Source: Escherichia coli (lineage in GTDB: Bacteria > Pseudomonadota > Gammaproteobacteria > Enterobacterales > Enterobacteriaceae). From it: a stretch of 64,000 nucleotides of DNA. Positions within the stretch are counted from its first letter, which is position 1. Every line of letters starts with the position of its first letter. The notes under the pieces are model-generated. The model worked only from the letters and a program-made list of their open reading frames with translations. It ran no database searches and had not been told where the DNA came from. Positions 1 to 17,423 of this stretch are shown here, piece after piece. Location of the stretch: the NCBI RefSeq assembly GCF_030013205.1, contig NZ_CP122648.1. The stretch is one strand, 5' to 3'. Made by a program: the position numbers and the translations under genes.

Positions 1-1
1 G

Positions 2-751
2 CAACACCGCGACTGGATCAGAACGTCCGGCGATCGCTTTGTCCTCGACCCGGGCATCCCTGAAGTTCAGGACTGGATCACATCAATAGTCGCGGAAGTG
101 GTTTCCCGCTATCCGGTAGATGGCGTGCAGTTTGACGACTATTTCTATACTGAGTCACCAGGTTCACGGCTAAATGATAACGAAACGTACCGCAAATACG
201 GAGGCGCATTTGCGTCAAAAGCAGACTGGCGGCGCAACAATACTCAGCAGTTAATTGCGAAGGTATCGCACACCATTAAAAGCATTAAGCCGGAAGTCGA
301 ATTTGGCGTTAGCCCGGCAGGCGTGTGGCGTAACCGATCACACGATCCGCTCGGTTCCGATACCCGAGGCGCGGCAGCCTATGACGAATCCTACGCTGAC
401 ACCCGTCGATGGGTGGAACAAGGATTGCTGGATTACATTGCTCCCCAAATTTACTGGCCGTTCTCACGGAGTGCCGCACGTTATGACGTTTTGGCAAAAT
501 GGTGGGCGGATGTCGTTAAACCGACCAGGACCCGCCTGTATATCGGTATCGCCTTCTATAAAGTGGGTGAACCTTCAAAGATAGAGCCAGACTGGATGAT
601 TAACGGCGGCGTACCGGAACTGAAAAAGCAGCTCGATCTTAACGATGCTGTACCCGAAATTAGCGGCACCATCTTGTTCCGTGAGGACTATCTGAATAAA
701 CCGCAGACTCAACAAGCGGTCAGCTATCTGCAAAGTCGTTGGGGCAGTTAA
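2..751 (+). CDS. yddW: 3' part of glycoside-hydrolase-like lipoprotein YddW; reading frame is open from the window edge, so the gene is 5'-truncated by the window
   Basis: Frame open from position 2 to stop at 749-751; translation matches YddW C-terminus; synteny upstream of dosC. Confidence 0.8.
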   Translation, partial: QHRDWIRTSGDRFVLDPGIPEVQDWITSIVAEVVSRYPVDGVQFDDYFYTESPGSRLNDNETYRKYGGAFASKADWRRNNTQQLIAKVSHTIKSIKPEVEFGVSPAGVWRNRSHDPLGSDTRGAAAYDESYADTRRWVEQGLLDYIAPQIYWPFSRSAARYDVLAKWWADVVKPTRTRLYIGIAFYKVGEPSKIEPDWMINGGVPELKKQLDLNDAVPEISGTILFREDYLNKPQTQQAVSYLQSRWGS

Positions 752-1127
752 ATTCCCATTCTTACTTTGTAACAAGCCGGTGCTTTACCCACTGGCTTGT
801 TACCCTCGTGAAATATCCCACTAGCAATCATGCTTACATAAGTCAAATTAACCACACAATTAACCACACTTAGTTAAACAGCCATAATTCCCCTAATAAA
901 AATGTATGAATATGAAAAAACATACGATATTCGCTGTCACCGAAAAATAATTACGATGGGCTATACTCTTCTGAAGAACAGTAGCGTAGATTGAAACTGT
1001 CCTAAGTCGCTTATTTGTTTTCAGTATATCTTCATATTTCAGGAGAATATGGTGCAGTTAGTCGATCTCGCACGTTGCGTTTCGTTTTGATTCCGTCTGC
1101 TTTTCCAGCCTTATAAGGGTGTGAATT

Positions 1128-2510
1128 ATGGAGATGTATTTTAAAAGAATGAAAGATGAGTGGACCGGGCTTGTCGAACAAGCAGATCCGCTCATTCGTG
1201 CTAAAGCCGCGGAAATTGCCGTTGCGCATGCCCATTATCTGAGTATTGAGTTTTACCGAATTGTCCGTATCGACCCGCATGCCGAAGAATTCTTGAGTAA
1301 TGAACAAGTTGAGCGGCAGTTGAAAAGTGCGATGGAACGCTGGATTATTAACGTGCTTTCTGCCCAGGTTGACGATGTCGAAAGGCTAATACAAATCCAG
1401 CATACCGTTGCGGAAGTGCATGCCCGCATAGGAATCCCGGTAGAAATTGTCGAGATGGGGTTTCGGGTGCTGAAAAAAATCCTCTATCCAGTCATCTTCT
1501 CTTCGGATTATTCCGCCGCAGAAAAACTTCAGGTCTACCATTTCTCTATTAACAGTATTGATATCGCGATGGAAGTGATGACCCGCGCGTTTACCTTTAG
1601 TGACAGTAGTGCCTCAAAGGAAGATGAAAACTATCGTATCTTCTCGTTACTGGAAAACGCCGAAGAAGAAAAAGAACGGCAAATAGCCTCAATACTTTCA
1701 TGGGAAATAGATATTATCTATAAAGTCCTGCTGGATTCTGATTTAGGCAGTAGTTTGCCTTTAAGCCAGGCTGATTTTGGCCTGTGGTTTAACCATAAAG
1801 GTCGACATTATTTTAGCGGCATAGCCGAAGTGGGCCATATCTCCCGTTTGATTCAGGATTTCGACGGTATTTTCAATCAAACCATGCGTAACACCAGGAA
1901 TTTGAATAACAGAAGTCTGCGGGTGAAATTTTTATTACAGATAAGAAATACCGTATCGCAAATTATTACCTTGCTGCGTGAATTGTTTGAAGAAGTATCG
2001 CGCCACGAAGTCGGTATGGATGTACTGACGAAATTACTTAACCGCCGTTTCCTGCCGACTATCTTCAAACGCGAAATTGCCCATGCCAACCGGACCGGTA
2101 CATCGCTGTCAGTGCTGATTATTGACGTTGATAAATTCAAAGAGATCAACGATACGTGGGGCCATAACACTGGCGATGAAATTCTGCGTAAAGTCTCTCA
2201 GGCCTTTTATGACAACGTCCGCAGTAGTGATTATGTTTTCCGCTACGGGGGCGATGAATTTATCATTGTTTTGACTGAAGCTTCGGAAAACGAAACGTTA
2301 CGTACCGCAGAACGTATTCGCAGTCGGGTGGAGAAAACCAAACTGAAAGCCGCAAACGGCGAAGATATTGCCCTCTCACTTTCCATCGGTGCCGCCATGT
2401 TTAATGGTCATCCTGACTATGAGCGCCTCATTCAAATAGCCGATGAAGCTCTGTATATCGCCAAAAGACGAGGTAGAAACCGTGTTGAACTCTGGAAAGC
2501 CAGTCTTTAG
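1128..2510 (+). CDS. dosC: Globin-coupled diguanylate cyclase DosC (460 aa), GGDEF motif RYGGDEF present
   Basis: ORF 460 aa with N-terminal globin sensor and C-terminal GGDEF domain; immediately upstream of dosP. Confidence 0.92.
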   Translation: MEMYFKRMKDEWTGLVEQADPLIRAKAAEIAVAHAHYLSIEFYRIVRIDPHAEEFLSNEQVERQLKSAMERWIINVLSAQVDDVERLIQIQHTVAEVHARIGIPVEIVEMGFRVLKKILYPVIFSSDYSAAEKLQVYHFSINSIDIAMEVMTRAFTFSDSSASKEDENYRIFSLLENAEEEKERQIASILSWEIDIIYKVLLDSDLGSSLPLSQADFGLWFNHKGRHYFSGIAEVGHISRLIQDFDGIFNQTMRNTRNLNNRSLRVKFLLQIRNTVSQIITLLRELFEEVSRHEVGMDVLTKLLNRRFLPTIFKREIAHANRTGTSLSVLIIDVDKFKEINDTWGHNTGDEILRKVSQAFYDNVRSSDYVFRYGGDEFIIVLTEASENETLRTAERIRSRVEKTKLKAANGEDIALSLSIGAAMFNGHPDYERLIQIADEALYIAKRRGRNRVELWKASL

Positions 2511-2534
2511 ATGCGCCAGGATGCAGAGGTAATC

Positions 2535-4934
2535 ATGAAGCTAACCGATGCGGATAATGCCGCCGATGGCATTTTTTTCCCCGCCCTTGAGCAAAATATG
2601 ATGGGCGCGGTGTTAATTAACGAAAATGATGAAGTGATGTTTTTCAACCCCGCCGCAGAGAAGCTCTGGGGGTACAAACGTGAAGAAGTTATTGGCAATA
2701 ACATTGATATGCTGATTCCGCGGGATTTGCGTCCCGCGCATCCTGAATACATCCGTCACAACCGTGAAGGCGGTAAAGCGCGCGTCGAGGGGATGAGTCG
2801 GGAGCTGCAGCTGGAGAAAAAAGACGGCAGTAAAATCTGGACCCGTTTTGCGCTATCGAAAGTGAGCGCCGAGGGGAAAGTTTATTACCTGGCGCTGGTA
2901 CGGGATGCCAGCGTAGAAATGGCGCAAAAAGAACAGACCCGACAATTGATTATTGCCGTTGACCATCTCGACCGACCAGTGATTGTCCTCGATCCGGAAC
3001 GCCATATTGTGCAGTGCAATCGTGCATTTACCGAAATGTTTGGTTACTGCATTAGCGAAGCCAGCGGTATGCAGCCCGATACACTCCTGAACATTCCAGA
3101 ATTCCCTGCTGATAACCGCATTCGTTTACAACAGTTGCTATGGAAAACCGCCCGCGATCAGGACGAATTTCTGCTGTTGACGCGCACCGGTGAAAAAATC
3201 TGGATTAAAGCCTCTATCAGCCCGGTCTATGATGTGCTCGCGCATCTGCAGAACCTGGTAATGACTTTCTCGGATATCACCGAAGAACGGAAAATCCGCC
3301 AGCTTGAAGGCAATATTCTCGCCGCCATGTGCAGCAGCCCGCCATTTCATGAAATGGGGGAAATTATTTGTCGTAACATCGAATCTGTACTCAACGAATC
3401 GCATGTTTCGCTGTTCGCGCTGCGCAACGGGATGCCGATACACTGGGCGTCATCTTCGCACGGTGCAGAAGTTCAAAATGCGCAAAGCTGGTCAGCGACC
3501 ATTCGTCAGCGTGATGGTGCGCCTGCGGGGATCCTGCAAATTAAAACCTCGTCAGGAGCAGAAACCAGCGCCTTTATCGAACGCGTGGCAGATATCAGCC
3601 AGCATATGGCCGCGCTGGCGCTGGAACAGGAAAAAAGCCGTCAGCATATTGAACAACTCATCCAATTTGATCCGATGACCGGTCTGCCAAATCGCAATAA
3701 CCTGCACAATTACCTCGATGACCTGGTCGACAAAGCCGTCTCTCCGGTGGTCTATCTCATCGGTGTTGACCATATTCAGGATGTGATTGATAGCCTTGGC
3801 TATGCGTGGGCCGATCAGGCATTGCTGGAAGTGGTCAATCGCTTTCGTGAAAAACTCAAACCGGATCAGTATCTCTGTCGTATCGAAGGTACGCAGTTTG
3901 TCCTCGTGAGCCTCGAAAACGACGTCAGTAACATTACCCAGATCGCCGATGAGCTACGGAATGTGGTCAGCAAGCCGATAATGATTGATGATAAACCATT
4001 CCCGCTTACCTTGAGTATTGGCATCAGCTACGACGTGGGTAAAAACCGCGATTACCTGCTCTCCACTGCTCACAATGCAATGGATTATATTCGCAAAAAT
4101 GGCGGTAACGGCTGGCAGTTCTTCAGCCCGGCGATGAACGAAATGGTAAAAGAGCGTTTGGTTTTAGGCGCGGCGCTGAAAGAAGCAATTAGCAATAACC
4201 AACTGAAACTGGTTTACCAGCCACAAATCTTCGCAGAAACGGGTGAACTGTACGGCATCGAAGCCCTTGCTCGCTGGCACGATCCCCTGCATGGTCATGT
4301 GCCCCCTTCACGGTTTATTCCTCTCGCAGAAGAGATCGGTGAAATCGAAAATATTGGACGCTGGGTCATCGCGGAAGCTTGCCGTCAGTTAGCAGAATGG
4401 CGTAGCCAGAATATTCATATCCCGGCGTTATCCGTTAACTTGTCGGCGTTGCACTTTCGCAGTAATCAGCTGCCTAATCAGGTGTCTGATGCAATGCACG
4501 CCTGGGGTATTGACGGCCACCAGCTGACGGTGGAAATCACGGAAAGCATGATGATGGAACACGATACCGAAATCTTTAAGCGCATTCAGATCCTGCGCGA
4601 TATGGGCGTGGGTTTATCGGTAGATGATTTTGGCACGGGCTTTTCCGGATTATCCCGCTTAGTCAGTCTTCCGGTAACGGAAATCAAAATTGACAAAAGT
4701 TTTGTCGATCGTTGTCTGACCGAAAAACGCATCCTTGCCTTACTTGAAGCCATTACCAGCATTGGGCAAAGCCTTAATTTAACCGTCGTGGCGGAAGGCG
4801 TCGAAACCAAAGAGCAATTTGAGATGCTACGCAAGATCCACTGTCGCGTTATTCAGGGATATTTATTTTCCCGCCCCCTGCCCGCCGAAGAAATTCCAGG
4901 CTGGATGAGCAGTGTGTTACCGCTGAAAATCTGA
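2535..4934 (+). CDS. dosP: Heme-regulated c-di-GMP phosphodiesterase DosP (PAS-PAS-GGDEF-EAL), 799 aa
   Basis: ORF in frame from ATG 2535 with GAGG RBS at 2526-2529; EAL domain at C-terminus; the ORF-track start 2511 is an upstream in-frame ATG without RBS. Confidence 0.9.
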   Translation: MKLTDADNAADGIFFPALEQNMMGAVLINENDEVMFFNPAAEKLWGYKREEVIGNNIDMLIPRDLRPAHPEYIRHNREGGKARVEGMSRELQLEKKDGSKIWTRFALSKVSAEGKVYYLALVRDASVEMAQKEQTRQLIIAVDHLDRPVIVLDPERHIVQCNRAFTEMFGYCISEASGMQPDTLLNIPEFPADNRIRLQQLLWKTARDQDEFLLLTRTGEKIWIKASISPVYDVLAHLQNLVMTFSDITEERKIRQLEGNILAAMCSSPPFHEMGEIICRNIESVLNESHVSLFALRNGMPIHWASSSHGAEVQNAQSWSATIRQRDGAPAGILQIKTSSGAETSAFIERVADISQHMAALALEQEKSRQHIEQLIQFDPMTGLPNRNNLHNYLDDLVDKAVSPVVYLIGVDHIQDVIDSLGYAWADQALLEVVNRFREKLKPDQYLCRIEGTQFVLVSLENDVSNITQIADELRNVVSKPIMIDDKPFPLTLSIGISYDVGKNRDYLLSTAHNAMDYIRKNGGNGWQFFSPAMNEMVKERLVLGAALKEAISNNQLKLVYQPQIFAETGELYGIEALARWHDPLHGHVPPSRFIPLAEEIGEIENIGRWVIAEACRQLAEWRSQNIHIPALSVNLSALHFRSNQLPNQVSDAMHAWGIDGHQLTVEITESMMMEHDTEIFKRIQILRDMGVGLSVDDFGTGFSGLSRLVSLPVTEIKIDKSFVDRCLTEKRILALLEAITSIGQSLNLTVVAEGVETKEQFEMLRKIHCRVIQGYLFSRPLPAEEIPGWMSSVLPLKI

Positions 4935-4946
4935 CAAATTCCTCTC

Positions 4947-4970
4947 GCCCGCACTCGCGGGTTTTCATTT
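4947..4970 (+). terminator. Putative intrinsic terminator after dosP (short GC stem cccgc/gcggg followed by TTTTCATTT)
   Basis: Inverted repeat plus T-run seen 13 nt after dosP stop. Confidence 0.45.
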
Positions 4971-5131
4971 AACGTGACACTGTCACTTAAATACTGTGAT
5001 TTCAGCTACGATTCCGGGAGATTCCTTCCTTAACTTCCCCTCTTGCACCAAAACTGCACTACGCTGCACAAATGTTGATCAAAAGTTAAAAAATATAACT
5101 TTAAGCCAGCATTCTGGCGCTTATCCCGGCA

Positions 5132-5147
5132 TGGCATGAGATCTGCA
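5132..5147 (+). promoter_or_regulatory. Candidate sigma-54 (-24/-12) promoter TGGCAT-N5-CTGCA upstream of ddpX
   Basis: Sequence tggcatgagatctgca matches TGGCAC-N5-TTGCA consensus with 2 mismatches, about 45 nt upstream of ddpX ATG. Confidence 0.5.
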
Positions 5148-5191
5148 TAAGCGGAAAGCGCAGCAATTTTTGTCTTATACAGGAACTGTTT

Positions 5192-5773
5192 ATGTCGGAT
5201 ACCACCGAACTGGTTGATTTAGCCGTGATCTTCCCTGATCTGGAGATCGAACTGAAATACGCCTGCGCTGATAACATCACAGGTAAAGCTATTTATCAGC
5301 AAGCGCGTTGTCTGTTACACAAGGATGCGATTACCGCGCTGGCGAAAAGTATCAGTATCGCCCAGCTGTCAGGCTTACAACTGGTGATTTACGATGCGTA
5401 TCGCCCACAACAAGCACAGGCGATGTTGTGGCAAGCCTGCCCAGACCCGCAATATGTTGTTGATGTGGCGGTCGGTTCTAATCACAGCCGTGGCACGGCG
5501 ATCGACCTGACGCTTCGTGATGAGCACGGGAACATCCTGGATATGGGTGCAGAGTTCGATGAAATGCACGAACGTTCCCATGCTTATCACCCTTCCGTCC
5601 CGCCCGCCGCTCAGCGCAATCGGCTGTTGCTGAATGCGATTATGACTGGCGGTGGCTTTGTCGGTATCCCGAGCGAATGGTGGCACTTCGAATTACCCCA
5701 GGCAGCGAGTTACCCACTACTCGCTGATCAATTCACCTGTTTTATATCCCCTGGCACACAGCACGCCAGTTAA
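5192..5773 (+). CDS. ddpX: D-alanyl-D-alanine dipeptidase DdpX (VanX homolog), 193 aa
   Basis: ORF translation; zinc dipeptidase motifs; first gene of ddp operon. Confidence 0.92.
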   Translation: MSDTTELVDLAVIFPDLEIELKYACADNITGKAIYQQARCLLHKDAITALAKSISIAQLSGLQLVIYDAYRPQQAQAMLWQACPDPQYVVDVAVGSNHSRGTAIDLTLRDEHGNILDMGAEFDEMHERSHAYHPSVPPAAQRNRLLLNAIMTGGGFVGIPSEWWHFELPQAASYPLLADQFTCFISPGTQHAS

Positions 5774-5786
5774 TCAGGAAACTGTC

Positions 5787-7337
5787 ATGAAGAGATCGAT
5801 ATCGTTTCGTCCTACATTGCTCGCGATCGTCCTTGCCACAACAATGCCGGTTGCGCACGCCGCCGTACCGAAAGATATGCTGGTGATCGGTAAAGCTGCC
5901 GACCCACAAACCCTCGACCCGGCGGTAACAATTGATAATAACGACTGGACAGTGACCTACCCGTCTTATCAGCGACTGGTTCAGTACAAAACGGACGGTG
6001 ATAAAGGCTCAACCGACGTTGAAGGCGATCTGGCTAGTAGCTGGAAAGCGTCTGACGATCAAAAAGAGTGGACGTTCACCCTGAAGGACAATGCTAAATT
6101 TGCCGATGGCACACCTGTCACTGCCGAAGCAGTAAAACTCTCTTTTGAGCGGTTACTAAAAATCGGCCAGGGGCCAGCAGAAGCATTTCCCAAAGATTTA
6201 AAGATTGATGCTCCCGACGAACATACAGTGAGGTTTACCCTTAGCCAGCCATTCGCACCGTTCCTCTACACGCTGGCGAATGACGGTGCATCCATTATCA
6301 ATCCGGCGGTCTTAAAGGAGCATGCGGCGGATGATGCCCGTGGTTTCCTCGCGCAAAATACCGCTGGCTCCGGACCGTTTATGCTGAAAAGCTGGCAAAA
6401 AGGTCAGCAATTAGTTCTGGTGCCAAATCCGCATTACCCCGGCAATAAACCGAATTTCAAACGGGTATCGGTAAAAATTATCGGTGAAAGTGCTTCCCGT
6501 CGCCTGCAGCTCTCCCGTGGCGACATTGACATTGCCGATGCGCTGCCGGTGGATCAACTCAACGCACTGAAGCAGGAAAACAAAGTCAATGTGGCAGAGT
6601 ATCCGTCACTGCGCGTCACCTATCTGTATCTGAATAACAGCAAAGCGCCACTTAATCAGGCGGATCTGCGTCGGGCCATTTCCTGGTCTACCGATTATCA
6701 GGGTATGGTTAACGGCATTCTGAGTGGTAACGGAAAACAAATGCGCGGCCCGATTCCGGAAGGCATGTGGGGATACGATGCGACGGCAATGCAATACAAC
6801 CATGACGAAACGAAAGCCAAAGCCGAATGGGATAAAGTGACGAGCAAACCCACCAGCCTGACGTTTCTCTATTCTGATAATGATCCGAACTGGGAGCCCA
6901 TTGCTCTGGCGACACAATCCAGTCTCAACAAGCTGGGCATCAATGTGAAGCTGGAAAAACTGGCGAACGCCACCATGCGCGACAGAGTGGGTAAAGGTGA
7001 TTACGACATCGCGATTGGCAACTGGAGTCCGGATTTTGCCGACCCGTATATGTTTATGAATTACTGGTTTGAGTCAGACAAAAAAGGTCTGCCGGGTAAC
7101 CGCTCGTTCTATGAAAACAGTGAGGTCGATAAGTTACTGCGCAATGCGCTAGCGACCACCGACCAGACGCAGCGTACCCGGGACTACCAGCAGGCACAGA
7201 AAATCGTCATTGATGACGCTGCTTATGTGTACCTGTTCCAGAAAAACTACCAACTGGCGATGAACAAAGAGGTGAAAGGCTTTGTGTTCAATCCCATGCT
7301 GGAACAGGTCTTCAATATCAATACCATGAGTAAATAA
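5787..7337 (+). CDS. ddpA: Periplasmic D,D-dipeptide-binding protein DdpA (516 aa) with signal peptide
   Basis: Internal ATG at 5787 gives MKRSISFRPTLLAIVLATTMPVAHA signal peptide; the ORF-track start 5652 overlaps ddpX and is rejected. Confidence 0.9.
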   Translation: MKRSISFRPTLLAIVLATTMPVAHAAVPKDMLVIGKAADPQTLDPAVTIDNNDWTVTYPSYQRLVQYKTDGDKGSTDVEGDLASSWKASDDQKEWTFTLKDNAKFADGTPVTAEAVKLSFERLLKIGQGPAEAFPKDLKIDAPDEHTVRFTLSQPFAPFLYTLANDGASIINPAVLKEHAADDARGFLAQNTAGSGPFMLKSWQKGQQLVLVPNPHYPGNKPNFKRVSVKIIGESASRRLQLSRGDIDIADALPVDQLNALKQENKVNVAEYPSLRVTYLYLNNSKAPLNQADLRRAISWSTDYQGMVNGILSGNGKQMRGPIPEGMWGYDATAMQYNHDETKAKAEWDKVTSKPTSLTFLYSDNDPNWEPIALATQSSLNKLGINVKLEKLANATMRDRVGKGDYDIAIGNWSPDFADPYMFMNYWFESDKKGLPGNRSFYENSEVDKLLRNALATTDQTQRTRDYQQAQKIVIDDAAYVYLFQKNYQLAMNKEVKGFVFNPMLEQVFNINTMSK

Positions 7338-7338
7338 C

Positions 7339-8361
7339 GTGACCTTCTGGAGTATTTTACGCCAACGCTGCTGGGGGCTGGTGCTCGTGGTGGCGGGCGT
7401 CTGTGTGATTACGTTTATTATCTCGCACCTGATCCCCGGCGATCCGGCGCGGTTACTGGCGGGTGACCGCGCCAGCGATGCTATCGTGGATAATATTCGC
7501 CAGCAACTGGGACTGGACCAGCCACTGTACGTACAGTTTTACCGCTACGTCAGCGACCTGTTTCAGGGTGACCTGGGAACATCCATTCGTACCGGGCGTC
7601 CGGTGCTGGAAGAGTTGCGCATATTTTTCCCGGCGACGCTGGAACTGGCTTTTTGTGCCCTGCTGCTGGCACTCCTGATTGGCATCCCGCTGGGCATACT
7701 CTCTGCAGTCTGGCGAAATCGCTGGCTGGATCATCTGGTGCGAATAATGGCCATTACCGGAATCTCCACACCTGCGTTCTGGCTTGGGCTGGGCGTCATT
7801 GTGCTGTTTTATGGTCATCTGCAAATTCTTCCCGGCGGCGGAAGGCTTGATGACTGGCTGGATCCACCAACGCACGTTACCGGCTTTTATCTGCTCGATG
7901 CGCTGCTTGAAGGTAACGGTGAAGTCTTCTTCAATGCGCTGCAACATCTCATCTTACCGGCATTAACGCTGGCGTTCGTTCACCTGGGGATTGTCGCTCG
8001 CCAGATCCGCTCAGCTATGCTGGAACAATTGAGTGAAGACTACATTCGTACCGCCCGGGCCAGCGGCTTGCCCGGCTGGTATATCGTTTTATGTTATGCG
8101 CTACCCAATGCGTTGATCCCCTCGATTACCGTATTGGGACTGGCGTTGGGCGATTTGTTGTATGGCGCAGTGCTCACCGAAACCGTTTTTGCCTGGCCCG
8201 GAATGGGTGCATGGGTAGTAACATCAATACAGGCGCTCGACTTCCCGGCAGTGATGGGCTTTGCCGTCGTGGTTTCATTTGCTTATGTGCTGGTGAACCT
8301 GGTGGTGGATTTGCTCTATTTGTGGATTGATCCGCGTATCGGACGTGGAGGTGGTGAATGA
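7339..8361 (+). CDS. ddpB: ABC transporter permease DdpB (340 aa), GTG start
   Basis: ORF translation, polytopic membrane protein of OppB/DppB type. Confidence 0.88.
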   Translation: MTFWSILRQRCWGLVLVVAGVCVITFIISHLIPGDPARLLAGDRASDAIVDNIRQQLGLDQPLYVQFYRYVSDLFQGDLGTSIRTGRPVLEELRIFFPATLELAFCALLLALLIGIPLGILSAVWRNRWLDHLVRIMAITGISTPAFWLGLGVIVLFYGHLQILPGGGRLDDWLDPPTHVTGFYLLDALLEGNGEVFFNALQHLILPALTLAFVHLGIVARQIRSAMLEQLSEDYIRTARASGLPGWYIVLCYALPNALIPSITVLGLALGDLLYGAVLTETVFAWPGMGAWVVTSIQALDFPAVMGFAVVVSFAYVLVNLVVDLLYLWIDPRIGRGGGE

Positions 8362-9254
8362 TGCTAAGCGAGGAAACGTCCGCCGTACGCCCACCAAAAC
8401 AAACGCGATTTAACGGTGCAAAACTGGTATGGATGCTGAAAGGCAGCCCGCTTACCGTGACCGGCGCAGTCATCATTGTATTAATGCTACTGATGATGAT
8501 TTTTTCACCGTGGCTGGCGACGCATGATCCCAACGCCATTGATTTAACCGCCCGCCTTTTGCCGCCTTCTGCGGCGCACTGGTTTGGCACCGATGAAGTG
8601 GGACGCGATCTGTTTAGCCGCGTACTGGTCGGCAGTCAGCAATCAATTCTCGCCGGATTAGTGGTAGTCGCCATTGCAGGTATGATGGGGTCGCTACTCG
8701 GGTGTCTATCCGGTGTGCTTGGCGGACGCGCAGACGCGATTATCATGCGCATCATGGACATTATGCTGTCGATTCCTTCGCTGGTGCTGACAATGGCACT
8801 GGCAGCCGCTCTCGGGCCGAGTTTGTTTAACGCCATGCTGGCGATTGCTATTGTGCGAATTCCCTTTTATGTGCGCCTGGCGCGGGGGCAAACATTAGTT
8901 GTTCGCCAGTATACCTATGTTCAGGCGGCGAAAACCTTTGGTGCGTCACGCTGGCATCTGATCAACTGGCATATTTTACGTAACTCCCTGCCGCCGCTGA
9001 TTGTGCAGGCATCGCTGGATATCGGTAGCGCGATTTTAATGGCCGCCACGTTGGGATTTATTGGCCTGGGTGCTCAACAACCGAGTGCTGAATGGGGGGC
9101 GATGGTGGCGAATGGTCGCAACTATGTACTCGATCAGTGGTGGTATTGCGCATTTCCGGGGGCAGCGATTTTGCTTACCGCCGTCGGGTTTAATCTCTTT
9201 GGTGATGGTATTCGCGATCTGCTTGACCCGAAAGCAGGAGGAAAGCAGTCATGA
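8358..9254 (+). CDS. ddpC: ABC transporter permease DdpC (298 aa); start overlaps ddpB stop (ATGA)
   Basis: ORF translation, DppC-type permease. Confidence 0.88.
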   Translation: MMLSEETSAVRPPKQTRFNGAKLVWMLKGSPLTVTGAVIIVLMLLMMIFSPWLATHDPNAIDLTARLLPPSAAHWFGTDEVGRDLFSRVLVGSQQSILAGLVVVAIAGMMGSLLGCLSGVLGGRADAIIMRIMDIMLSIPSLVLTMALAAALGPSLFNAMLAIAIVRIPFYVRLARGQTLVVRQYTYVQAAKTFGASRWHLINWHILRNSLPPLIVQASLDIGSAILMAATLGFIGLGAQQPSAEWGAMVANGRNYVLDQWWYCAFPGAAILLTAVGFNLFGDGIRDLLDPKAGGKQS

Positions 9255-10237
9255 CCCAACCCGTTCTGGACATTCAACAACTGCATTTGAGTTTCCCCGG
9301 TTTTAACGGTGATGTTCACGCGCTCAACAATGTGTCATTGAAAATCAACCGCGGTGAAATTGTCGGTCTGGTGGGAGAATCCGGCTCGGGTAAATCAGTC
9401 ACTGCAATGTTGATTATGCGTCTGCTACCGACGGGCAGTTATTGCGTACATCGGGGACATATTTCACTGCTGGGAGAAGATGCTCTTAACGCTCGGGAAA
9501 AACAGCTTCGTCAGTGGCGCGGCGCACGAGTGGCGATGATCTTTCAGGAACCGATGACCGCCCTTAATCCGACACGTCGAATAGGTCTTCAGATGATGGA
9601 CGTGATCCGCCATCATCAACCAATAAGTCGTCGGGAAGCCAGAGCTAAAGCGATTGCCCTGCTGGAAGAGATGCAAATCCCGGATGCCGTGGAAGTTATG
9701 TCGCGCTATCCGTTTGAGCTTTCAGGTGGTATGCGCCAGCGGGTAATGATTGCGCTGGCATTCTCCTGCGAGCCGCAGTTGATTATTGCCGACGAACCGA
9801 CTACGGCGCTGGACGTCACGGTACAGTTGCAGGTACTGCGTCTGCTTAAACATAAAGCCCGCGCCAGTGGAACTGCGGTACTGTTCATCAGCCATGATAT
9901 GGCCGTGGTGTCGCAACTGTGCGATAGCGTTTACGTGATGTATGCCGGAAGCGTGATTGAAAGCGGCGTGACGGCAGACGTTATCCATCATCCCCGGCAT
10001 CCGTATACCATTGGTTTGCTGCAATGCGCACCGGAACATGGAATACCGCGCCAGCCATTACCCGCCATTCCAGGGACGGTACCAAACCTCACCCATTTGC
10101 CTGACGGCTGCGCTTTTCGCGATCGTTGCTATGCGGCAGGTGCACAGTGTGAAAACGTCCCGGCGCTGACAGCGTGTGGTGACAACAACCACCGCTGCGC
10201 CTGTTGGTATCCTCAGCAGGAGGTCATTAGTGTCTGA
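9251..10237 (+). CDS. ddpD: ABC transporter ATP-binding protein DdpD (328 aa)
   Basis: Walker A GESGSGKS, ABC signature LSGGMRQR. Confidence 0.9.
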   Translation: MTQPVLDIQQLHLSFPGFNGDVHALNNVSLKINRGEIVGLVGESGSGKSVTAMLIMRLLPTGSYCVHRGHISLLGEDALNAREKQLRQWRGARVAMIFQEPMTALNPTRRIGLQMMDVIRHHQPISRREARAKAIALLEEMQIPDAVEVMSRYPFELSGGMRQRVMIALAFSCEPQLIIADEPTTALDVTVQLQVLRLLKHKARASGTAVLFISHDMAVVSQLCDSVYVMYAGSVIESGVTADVIHHPRHPYTIGLLQCAPEHGIPRQPLPAIPGTVPNLTHLPDGCAFRDRCYAAGAQCENVPALTACGDNNHRCACWYPQQEVISV

Positions 10238-11156
10238 CACGTTATTAACGTTACGCGACGTCCATATCAATTTCCCTGCCCGAAAAAACTGGCTTGGTAA
10301 AACTACGGAACATGTTCATGCCATCAATGGTATTGATTTACAGATCCGTCGTGGTGAAACCTTAGGGATCGTCGGTGAGTCAGGCTGCGGCAAAAGCACC
10401 CTCGCACAGCTTTTAATGGGTATGCTGCAACCGAGCCACGGGCAGTACATCTGTTCAGGATCACAACGCATTATGCAGATGGTGTTTCAGGACCCGCTCT
10501 CTTCGCTTAATCCGCGCTTACCGGTGTGGCGCATCATCACGGAACCGCTCTGGATTGCTAAGCGTAGTAGTGAACAACAGCGGCGAGCGTTGGCAGAGGA
10601 GCTGGCTGTGCAGGTGGGTATTCGTCCGGAGTATCTCGACCGCTTGCCTCATGCGTTCTCAGGCGGGCAGCGGCAACGTATCGCCATTGCCAGAGCACTC
10701 TCTTCGCAGCCTGACGTGATTGTGCTTGATGAACCAACCTCGGCGCTGGATATCTCCGTGCAGGCGCAGATCCTCAATTTACTGGTAACGCTACAGGAAA
10801 ATCGCGAGCTGACTTATGTGCTGATTTCACACAATGTCTCCGTGATACGTCATATGAGCGATCGGGTGGCGGTGATGTATCTCGGACAGATTGTGGAACT
10901 AGGAGACGCGCAACAGGTGCTGACAGCTCCGGCACATCCATACACCCGATTATTGCTGGATTCCCTCCCCGCCATTGATAAACCGCTGGAGGAAGAATGG
11001 GCATTACGTAAAACGGATCTACCAGGAAACCGCACGTTGCCACAAGGCTGTTTTTTCCGCGAACGCTGCCCTTTGGCAACCCACGGATGTGAAGTCCGGC
11101 AATCATTAACAATAAGGGAGGACGGACGTGAGATCCGGTGCTGGCGGGCGCTGTAG
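10230..11156 (+). CDS. ddpF: ABC transporter ATP-binding protein DdpF (308 aa), GTG start overlapping ddpD end
   Basis: Walker A GESGCGKST, signature FSGGQRQR; GTG at 10230 gives the expected 308 aa length. Confidence 0.85.
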   Translation: MSDTLLTLRDVHINFPARKNWLGKTTEHVHAINGIDLQIRRGETLGIVGESGCGKSTLAQLLMGMLQPSHGQYICSGSQRIMQMVFQDPLSSLNPRLPVWRIITEPLWIAKRSSEQQRRALAEELAVQVGIRPEYLDRLPHAFSGGQRQRIAIARALSSQPDVIVLDEPTSALDISVQAQILNLLVTLQENRELTYVLISHNVSVIRHMSDRVAVMYLGQIVELGDAQQVLTAPAHPYTRLLLDSLPAIDKPLEEEWALRKTDLPGNRTLPQGCFFRERCPLATHGCEVRQSLTIREDGREIRCWRAL

Positions 11157-11164
11157 AGACGCTA

Positions 11165-11205
11165 ACAACGCATCAGGCAATCACGCGCCTGACGCGTCAT
11201 CCGGC
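11165..11205. repeat. Degenerate REP-like palindromic element between convergent ddpF and osmC
   Basis: Sequence aacgcatcaggca ... gcctgacgcgtcatccggca resembles REP consensus. Confidence 0.35.
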
Positions 11206-16546: not shown

Positions 16547-17423
16547 GATGATCCTCCTCGTCATCGTCCACTTCCTTATTCGGGCCAATACCGATGTAGT
16601 GGAAAATCAACCCGGCAAAAGTGGCAATAAAGCCAGCCGCTGCCAGCGGTTTCAACGCGCCTTTCCACAGGCTTACCGAGGTATCGATCTTCGGATCTTT
16701 CGGCAGACCGTGATACAGCTCCGGCTGATCGGCGTGATGCAGCACGTACATAACGTGCGTACCACCGACCCCTTCCGGGTTGTAGACGTCAGCATGTTCG
16801 TAACCACGCGCTTTCAGTTTCGCCACGCGCTGTTCCGCCAGCTCCAGCATCTCCTTCTTGGTGCCGAAGTGGATAGCCCCGGTCGGACAGGTTTTCACAC
16901 AAGCCGGTTCCTGGCCGACGCTGACGCGATCGACGCAGAGCGTGCATTTATATACCCGGTTATCCTCTTTGTTGAGGCGCGGAATATTAAACGGACACCC
17001 GGCAATGCAGTAACCACAGCCGATGCAGTTTTCCGACTGGAAATCGACAATCCCGTTAGCGTACTGAATGATTGCACCAGCAGACGGGCACGCCTTCAGG
17101 CAGCCCGGATCTTCACAGTGCATACAGCCGTCTTTACGGATCAGCCACTCCAGCTTGCCGTTCTGTTCGGTTTCGCTAAAGCGCATCACCGTCCAGGACT
17201 TGGCGCTCAGATCTGCGGGGTTATCGTAAACCCCGACGCAGTGCCCCACTTCATCACGGATGTCGTTCCACTCCGAACACGCCACCTGACAGGCTTTACA
17301 GCCGATACAGGTGGAAACGTCGATAAGTTTTGCGACTTCTGCTTTGTAATCACGCACCTGAGAAGGCGGCGTGATGGAGTTAGTTGCGGACCTTTTGATA
17401 ATGTCCTGCGTTTCCATAGCCAT
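16539..17423 (-). CDS. fdnH: Formate dehydrogenase-N iron-sulfur beta subunit FdnH (294 aa)
   Basis: Four CxxCxxCxxxCP ferredoxin motifs, C-terminal TM helix. Confidence 0.93.

Follow-up and report, generated by a model that had tools for sequence, protein, structure and literature searches.

A complete, ordinary copy of the Escherichia coli dosCP operon for oxygen-sensing c-di-GMP turnover

Positions 1128-4934 of the window, the whole stretch of 64,000 nucleotides of Escherichia coli DNA analyzed here, almost certainly constitute the chromosomal dosCP operon (dgcO-pdeO, formerly yddV-dos), with both genes at full length. The two genes encode a textbook pair of oxygen-sensing c-di-GMP enzymes, and the locus is an ordinary complete copy of a well-studied operon that adds nothing to what is already known; the initial annotation was right to label it established biology. 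The DNA is 100% identical to chromosomes of porcine ETEC/O139:H1 E. coli, and judged by this sequence the strain is a close relative of such isolates. In an identical RefSeq record (NZ_CP062203.1) dosC and dosP are annotated at exactly the same positions, in agreement with the two same-strand open reading frames that had been described as lying back-to-back, and the gene order gadC-digH-dosC-dosP-ddpX matches the synteny of K-12. The following features, all on the + strand, were assigned.

961..967, +, CTATACT, a sigma-S-type -10-like element and candidate dosCP promoter, read from the sequence of the digH-dosC intergenic region
1049..1090, +, yddY, 13 aa, with AGGAG upstream; translation identical to K-12 YddY
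1128..2510, +, dosC (dgcO/yddV), globin-coupled diguanylate cyclase, 460 aa plus TAG (Pfam, PDB, K-12 identity)
1203-1592, +, DosC Protoglobin domain, about aa 26-155 (Pfam, 41.5 bits, cutoff 25)
1665-1994, +, DosC middle domain, PF21118 DosC_2nd, aa 180-289 (167 bits, full profile length)
2016-2483, +, DosC GGDEF domain, aa 297-452 (Pfam, 173 bits)
2511..2534, +, dosC-dosP spacer, 24 nt, ATGCGCCAGGATGCAGAGGTAATC, identical to K-12
2535..4934, +, dosP (pdeO/yddU/dos), heme-PAS c-di-GMP phosphodiesterase, 799 aa plus TGA (NCBIfam, Pfam, PDB)
2607-2906, +, DosP heme PAS domain, about aa 24-124 (Pfam)
2958-3290, +, DosP second PAS domain, aa 142-252 (Pfam)
3666-4109, +, DosP degenerate GGDEF domain, aa 378-525 (Pfam, 78 bits)
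4173-4877, +, DosP EAL domain, aa 547-781 (Pfam, 233.6 bits)
4947..4969, +, intrinsic terminator after dosP, GCCCGC-ACTC-GCGGGT then TTTCATT (terminator scan)

The genes had been read as encoding a globin-coupled diguanylate cyclase and a heme-PAS phosphodiesterase, and a domain search returned the predicted domains in both proteins. DosC matches the crystallized DosC globin domain (PDB 4ZVA/4ZVB, E 1e-95 to 1e-100) and, for the middle domain, 4ZVC (E 2e-77); over 4ZVA/4ZVB/4ZVC/4ZVE the E-values range from 1e-77 to 1e-102, and the matched structures span 4ZVA-4ZVH. An identical protein is named DosC in RefSeq (WP_063085566.1), and orthology to K-12 b1490 is borne out by 457 identical residues out of 460 and by a position flanked by digH/yddY and dosP. 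DosP reaches 1642.5 bits against the NCBIfam equivalog NF008467 (cutoff 857), with residues 1-799 aligned on profile positions 1-800, and matches the heme-PAS structure 1V9Y (E 2e-92), 4HU3 (E 4e-179) as well as 9BGV/9CDR; across both proteins the structure E-values lie between 1e-77 and 0.

Are the enzymes also intact in the residues on which their chemistry depends? In alignments of up to 19 DosC and 10-11 DosP homologues the heme ligands and catalytic motifs proved to be conserved. DosC of the window contains the proximal heme ligand His98, the distal Tyr43/Gln60, and whole catalytic motifs, GGDEF at 374-378 and the I-site RSSD (RxxD) at 365-368. In the heme PAS domain of DosP His77 is the proximal ligand, Met95 the distal ligand and Arg97 the residue forming a hydrogen bond to O2 (PMC11543664); in this historical numbering they correspond to residues 69, 87 and 89 of the 799-aa form and are kept in all 11 aligned orthologues. 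The EAL (576-578) and DDFG (697-700) motifs of DosP are likewise kept, and a search of the protein for a GG[DE]EF motif found none, its GGDEF domain being degenerate. The statement that the module is intact therefore holds in the sense that both genes are full length with conserved heme ligands and active-site motifs, and DosC and DosP of the window are apparently functional. In K-12, DosC is a heme protein whose c-di-GMP synthesis is modulated by O2, the unliganded form making c-di-GMP from GTP, whereas in DosP O2 displaces Met95, is held by Arg97, and the O2-bound form hydrolyses c-di-GMP to pGpG (PMC11543664). Since unliganded DosC makes and O2-bound DosP breaks c-di-GMP, the pair would act as an oxygen-tuned source and sink. 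Both proteins are reported to act locally on PNPase within the RNase E degradosome (PMC11543664).

Nevertheless, a module that is present need not be functional, and one lineage-specific substitution among the seven that separate the window from K-12 could disable one of the partners. These are P22L, I200V and P326S in DosC and, in 799-aa numbering, Q253K, I313V, L501V and F777L in DosP. F777L in the EAL domain replaces an otherwise always aromatic residue (Phe or Tyr in nine of nine other aligned orthologues) and Q253K is unique to the allele of the window; moreover, loss or decay of the module is common in nature: about 20% of complete E. coli genomes have lost dosC, and E. albertii carries truncated dosC/dosP. 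However, all seven substitutions are conservative, and none of them touches the heme ligands, GGDEF, the I-site, EAL or DDFG. At three of the positions (DosC I200V, DosP I313V and L501V) the window has the residue found in most other Escherichia orthologues, so that K-12 is the exception there. The nucleotide differences from K-12 are mostly synonymous: 25 in dosC lead to three amino acid changes and 45 in dosP to four (795 of 799 residues identical), indicating purifying selection and thus real genes and not a chance pattern. Inactivation by one of the seven changes is thus extremely unlikely. A milder joint reading, in which the DosP allele with F777L and Q253K shifts the DosC/DosP balance and thereby the oxygen set-point of c-di-GMP while a yddY leader tunes dosCP, would be a long shot; if true, it would leave the identity of the locus unchanged. 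In this joint reading the tuning by yddY would go via translation of the open reading frame and not via the peptide.

The small open reading frame yddY upstream of dosC, on which the initial annotation was silent, ends 37 nt before dosC, is annotated in K-12 as b4746, and the tagged protein has been detected in K-12 (PMC6001520). Its Shine-Dalgarno sequence and ATG are conserved in Escherichia, but the length of the reading frame varies from 2 to 13 sense codons; two divergent E. coli as well as E. whittamii and E. albertii have just 2-3. Structure around yddY and the start of dosC (1040-1135) is no better than in shuffled sequences (z = +1.08).

Where does dosP start, and from where is it transcribed? 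The gap of 24 nt given in the initial annotation corresponds to the spacer 2511-2534, with a Shine-Dalgarno GAGG at 2526-2529, 5 nt before the ATG at 2535. The spacer length depends on the start codon chosen, because the dosP frame is already open from an in-frame ATG at 2511, which follows the dosC TAG without a gap (open reading frame 2511-4934), an alternative that the annotation did not mention. Initiation at this TAGATG would yield a protein of 807 aa, a spacer of 0 nt and stop-start translational coupling. Crystallographic and cryo-EM studies indeed used the 807-aa form (MRQDAEVI...), and the historical residue numbering follows it (PMC11543664; PDB 9BGV has 807 aa); the upstream ATG is also kept in K-12, in the window and in the loci L006 and L007. 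Yet the equivalent codon is ATT in genome CP089930.1 ("E. coli E69"), the equivalent stretch in Citrobacter, Phytobacter and Trabulsiella is without an in-frame ATG or contains in-frame stops, and the spacer length there varies by non-multiples of three (26, 27, 33, 35, 58 nt). Were these 24 nt coding, the sole changes in them within Escherichia would alter amino acids (Q to P, M to I). In contrast, a comparison of the junction in ten related loci, with spacers of 24, 26, 27, 33, 35 and 58 nt, found the ATG of the 2535 type (MKLTD...) and a GCAGAGGTAA Shine-Dalgarno box 5 nt upstream conserved throughout, that is in four genera (Escherichia, Citrobacter, Phytobacter, Trabulsiella), and the 799-aa start is the current choice of RefSeq and UniProt. 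As the ATG at 2535 and its Shine-Dalgarno box are conserved and the ATG at 2511 is not, 24 nt is the better-supported figure and the 807-aa start highly unlikely. The layout is otherwise that of an operon, with both genes on the same strand, a short spacer, a ribosome-binding site for the second gene, no intervening terminator and a terminator after dosP. The terminator scan of the 24-nt spacer gave no terminator-like site and no stable fold was detected there (z = +0.88), whereas the hairpin after dosP folds with -10.9 kcal/mol (z = -3.34), none of 200 shuffled sequences folding as well. On the other hand, dosP could be transcribed mainly alone, from a promoter in the 3' part of dosC, as a weak sigma-70-like site (ATGACA-17-TATGTT) is found inside dosC at 2209-2237 and dosP stays intact in genomes in which almost all of dosC is lost. 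The promoter scan, however, returned four sites versus 6.4 +/- 2.6 in shuffled sequence, i.e. fewer, which places the site at 2209-2237 at chance level. Moreover, the deletion found in genomes of the Nissle type removes this site but leaves the region upstream of dosC in place as far as yddY (1-1086), in line with a dependence of dosP on the upstream promoter, and the literature describes one operon (PMC11543664) that is sigma-S dependent (PMC6119863; PMC5635695). Separate transcription of dosP is therefore very unlikely.

The sequence is consistent with co-transcription of dosC and dosP from a sigma-S-dependent promoter, which published work reports outright (PMC11543664; PMC6119863; PMC5635695). 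Such a promoter would lie upstream of yddY, with CTATACT at 961-967 as candidate -10 element; K-12 and Nissle 1917 share the block containing it without any change, and it is also conserved in divergent E. coli as well as in E. whittamii and E. albertii. Translation of dosP would begin 24 nt past the dosC stop, served by a GAGG ribosome-binding site of its own, and transcription would end at the hairpin 4947-4962. A hairpin followed by a T-run inside dosP (2556-2573) was considered as attenuator and rejected (z = -1.18, 31 of 200 shuffled sequences as good). An Rfam search of positions 1-6000 at E <= 1 matched no RNA family, indicating that no known riboswitch or sRNA lies in or around dosCP.

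Beyond correct annotation the importance of the locus is small. That the module is intact is nevertheless informative, as the strain has the complete pair while in about a fifth of complete E. coli genomes dosP is all that remains of it. For the gene model, the cross-genus comparison favors the 24-nt spacer and the 799-aa DosP start over the historical 807-aa start, and in c-di-GMP models of the porcine-ETEC-like lineage DosC and DosP can count as present and, going by their conserved residues, probably active.

How does the locus compare with known systems? The dosCP operon of K-12 (dosC b1490, dosP b1489) has the same order and neighbors, gadC-digH-yddY-dosC-dosP-ddpX, the same gene lengths (460 and 799 aa) and an identical 24-nt spacer. 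Nucleotide identity is 97.8% over 4.6 kb and amino acid identity 99.3% for DosC and 99.5% for DosP; the digH-dosC intergenic region of the window differs from that of K-12 by a 12-nt duplication (aattaaccacac) and a 1-nt indel. Among 5,426 complete E. coli genomes, about 79% contain full-length dosC and about 98% full-length dosP; Nissle 1917, APEC O18 and similar strains have kept dosP with nearly all of dosC gone. More precisely, the locus of this type occupies the same chromosomal site, with intact dosP, the same terminator and the same sequence upstream as far as yddY, but lacks the segment corresponding to window positions 1087-2345 except for a retained 47-nt fragment (1769-1815), and dosC is reduced to its final 165 nt; the whole ddp operon (5011-11167) is also missing, whereas the window has both dosC and ddp. 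Pairing of cyclase and phosphodiesterase was seen in our sample only in Escherichia, some Citrobacter, Phytobacter and Trabulsiella. Stand-alone DosC homologues in Enterobacter, Kluyvera, Marinobacterium and Paenalcaligenes and some paralogues in Trabulsiella share the globin-middle-GGDEF architecture and, like DosC of the window, conserve His98, Tyr43, RxxD and GG(D/E)EF. Unlike in the window, no dosP-like gene follows them; no phosphodiesterase partner was found beside the distant homologues, the scanned flanking open reading frames being unrelated to c-di-GMP turnover, and their neighbors encode instead, for example, RecD, phosphatidylserine decarboxylase, a sigma-54 activator or a formate/nitrite transporter.

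Two genes of an oxygen-sensing c-di-GMP module lie back-to-back in the window, dosC (dgcO/yddV) for a globin-coupled diguanylate cyclase and dosP (pdeO/yddU/dos) for a heme-PAS phosphodiesterase, in the following arrangement (coding lengths of dosC and of the full dosP frame from the ORF list):

to 751, 3' end of digH/yddW, upstream of dosC
376 nt, AT-rich, digH-dosC intergenic region
1128-2510 (+), dosC ORF, 460 aa
2511-4934 (+), full open stretch of the dosP frame, 807 aa, same strand as dosC
2511-2534, dosC-dosP spacer ATGCGCCAGGATGCAGAGGTAATC, identical in K-12, with GAGG 5 nt before ATG 2535
2535-4934 (+), dosP from the internal ATG 2535, 799 aa
5192-5773, ddpX, 257 nt after dosP and followed by the ddp transporter genes

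The GC content is 40-47% in dosC and about 50% in dosP. The initial annotation had named a globin cyclase and a heme-PAS phosphodiesterase, and a domain search returned the predicted domains for both: Protoglobin (aa 26-155), the middle domain PF21118 (aa 180-289) and GGDEF (aa 297-452) in DosC, and two PAS domains, GGDEF and EAL in the 799-aa DosP. DosP moreover matches the NCBIfam DosP equivalog end-to-end (1642 bits, cutoff 857) and the solved E. coli structures 1V9Y (heme-PAS), 4HU3 (EAL) and 9BGV and 9CDR (full-length cryo-EM), as DosC matches 4ZVA-4ZVH (globin, middle and GGDEF domains). The module was also said to be intact, and indeed all heme-ligand residues and catalytic motifs checked are present, in DosC Tyr43, Gln60, His98, the RSSD I-site (365-368) and GGDEF (374-378), in DosP His77, Met95 and Arg97 of the historical numbering (69, 87 and 89 in the 799-aa form), EAL (576-578) and DDFG (697-700). 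In alignments these are kept across up to 19 DosC and 10-11 DosP homologues. A GG[DE]EF motif was not found in DosP, in keeping with the degenerate nature of its GGDEF domain.

Where does dosP start? The spacer opens with an ATG in the dosP frame immediately 3' of the dosC TAG, and the 807-aa protein starting there is the form behind the historical residue numbering and structural work (PMC11543664). We compared the junctions among loci that encode DosC in other species. Escherichia, Citrobacter, Phytobacter and Trabulsiella all retain the MKL-type ATG and the GCAGAGGTAA box. The upstream ATG, in contrast, reads ATT in one Escherichia genome, and the other three genera lack it or have it out of frame; spacer lengths vary (24, 26, 27, 33, 35 and 58 nt). 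A non-coding spacer that carries a ribosome-binding site shows just such a pattern, which argues that 2535 is the right start and that the 24 nt originally given between the genes are correct.

Within the 24-nt spacer a terminator scan found no terminator-like site and folding gave no stable RNA structure (z = +0.88); 3' of dosP a hairpin with T-run is found at 4947-4962 (-10.9 kcal/mol, z = -3.34). According to the literature, both genes are expressed as one operon (PMC11543664), which depends on sigma-S and shows strong stationary-phase induction (PMC6119863; PMC5635695). By resemblance, CTATACT at 961-967, kept across Escherichia, is a candidate sigma-S -10 box. The digH-dosC region also carries a tandem pair of the 12-nt unit aattaaccacac at 834-863 (+), present in two copies in Nissle 1917 as well and in one in K-12. 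The 13-aa small ORF yddY (PMC6001520) lies at 1049-1090 (+) behind an AGGAG box, and dosC begins 37 nt downstream. Its Shine-Dalgarno sequence and ATG are kept across Escherichia, but in E. whittamii, E. albertii and two divergent E. coli the ORF amounts to just 2-3 sense codons, so that the peptide itself is not conserved. Downstream, TGGCATGAGATCTGCA at 5132-5147 (+), 45 nt before the ddpX start, fits the sigma-54 -24/-12 pattern (TGGCAC-N5-TTGCA). The ddp operon is reported to be under NtrC/sigma-54 control.

Of 5426 complete E. coli genomes, 5304 carry 80% or more of dosP and 4293 the same share of dosC; frequent absence of DosC was reported earlier (PMC5635171). Nissle 1917, APEC O18 and similar strains lack 1087-2345 save a 47-nt fragment, keep only the final 165 nt of dosC in front of an intact dosP, and have also lost the ddp operon (5011-11167). 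Five dosCP-region matches fall on plasmid-labelled E. coli records, which may be mislabelled chromosomal contigs. In E. coli O157:H7 one record (H89) matches dosC nt 1-1239 only, and in two (H123/H124) the 2400-nt dosP query is matched by 2390 nt, suggesting that this lineage has a frameshift from the loss of 10 nt. Beyond Escherichia the pairing occurs in some Citrobacter, Phytobacter and one Trabulsiella paralogue pair, whereas in Enterobacter, Kluyvera and distant proteobacteria the DosC homologues are unpaired with dosP. In E. albertii NBRC 107761 a deletion (~5040-5056 of the fetched locus) fuses dosC, near codon 352, to dosP, near codon 453, the two parts being in differing frames, and the module appears destroyed. 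The dosP homologue of Phytobacter massiliensis JC163 (5417-7809 of its locus) gives two separate matches, aa 1-317 and 322-796, that lie in different frames, which indicates a frameshift or sequencing error.

Several porcine ETEC and O139:H1 chromosomes match window positions 700-5300 with 100% identity, and on them RefSeq annotation places dosC and dosP at exactly the same coordinates. Against NZ_CP062203.1 (K_EC180) there is a single mismatch up to 24,263, at 17252 inside fdnH, which K_EC180 annotates as a pseudogene with internal stop. Collinearity ends from 24264 (indel or rearrangement), beyond which K_EC180 carries copies of IS91 and narZ in truncated form; the window therefore comes from a close relative and not from NZ_CP062203.1 itself.

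The locus had been called established biology; it is already known in detail, and that observation and its interpretation are both correct. The small additions are comparative backing for where dosP starts, the presence of yddY, and the complete pair as the majority but not universal E. coli state. In K-12, unliganded DosC makes c-di-GMP, while in DosP O2 takes the place of Met95 at the heme-PAS, where Arg97 stabilises it, and turns on the EAL phosphodiesterase; the pair was proposed to set local c-di-GMP for PNPase in an RNase E degradosome (PMC11543664; PMC5635695). The K-12 MG1655 locus is 97.8% identical and shares the order gadC-digH-yddY-dosC-dosP-ddpX. Of 25 nucleotide differences in dosC and 45 in dosP, only 3/460 (P22L, I200V, P326S) and 4/799 (Q253K, I313V, L501V, F777L) residue changes result, so that most are synonymous, indicating that both genes are under purifying selection. 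F777L is the sole slightly unusual substitution, nine other aligned orthologues having Phe or Tyr there. As judged from their sequence, the window alleles suggest nothing that would point away from the K-12 mechanism.
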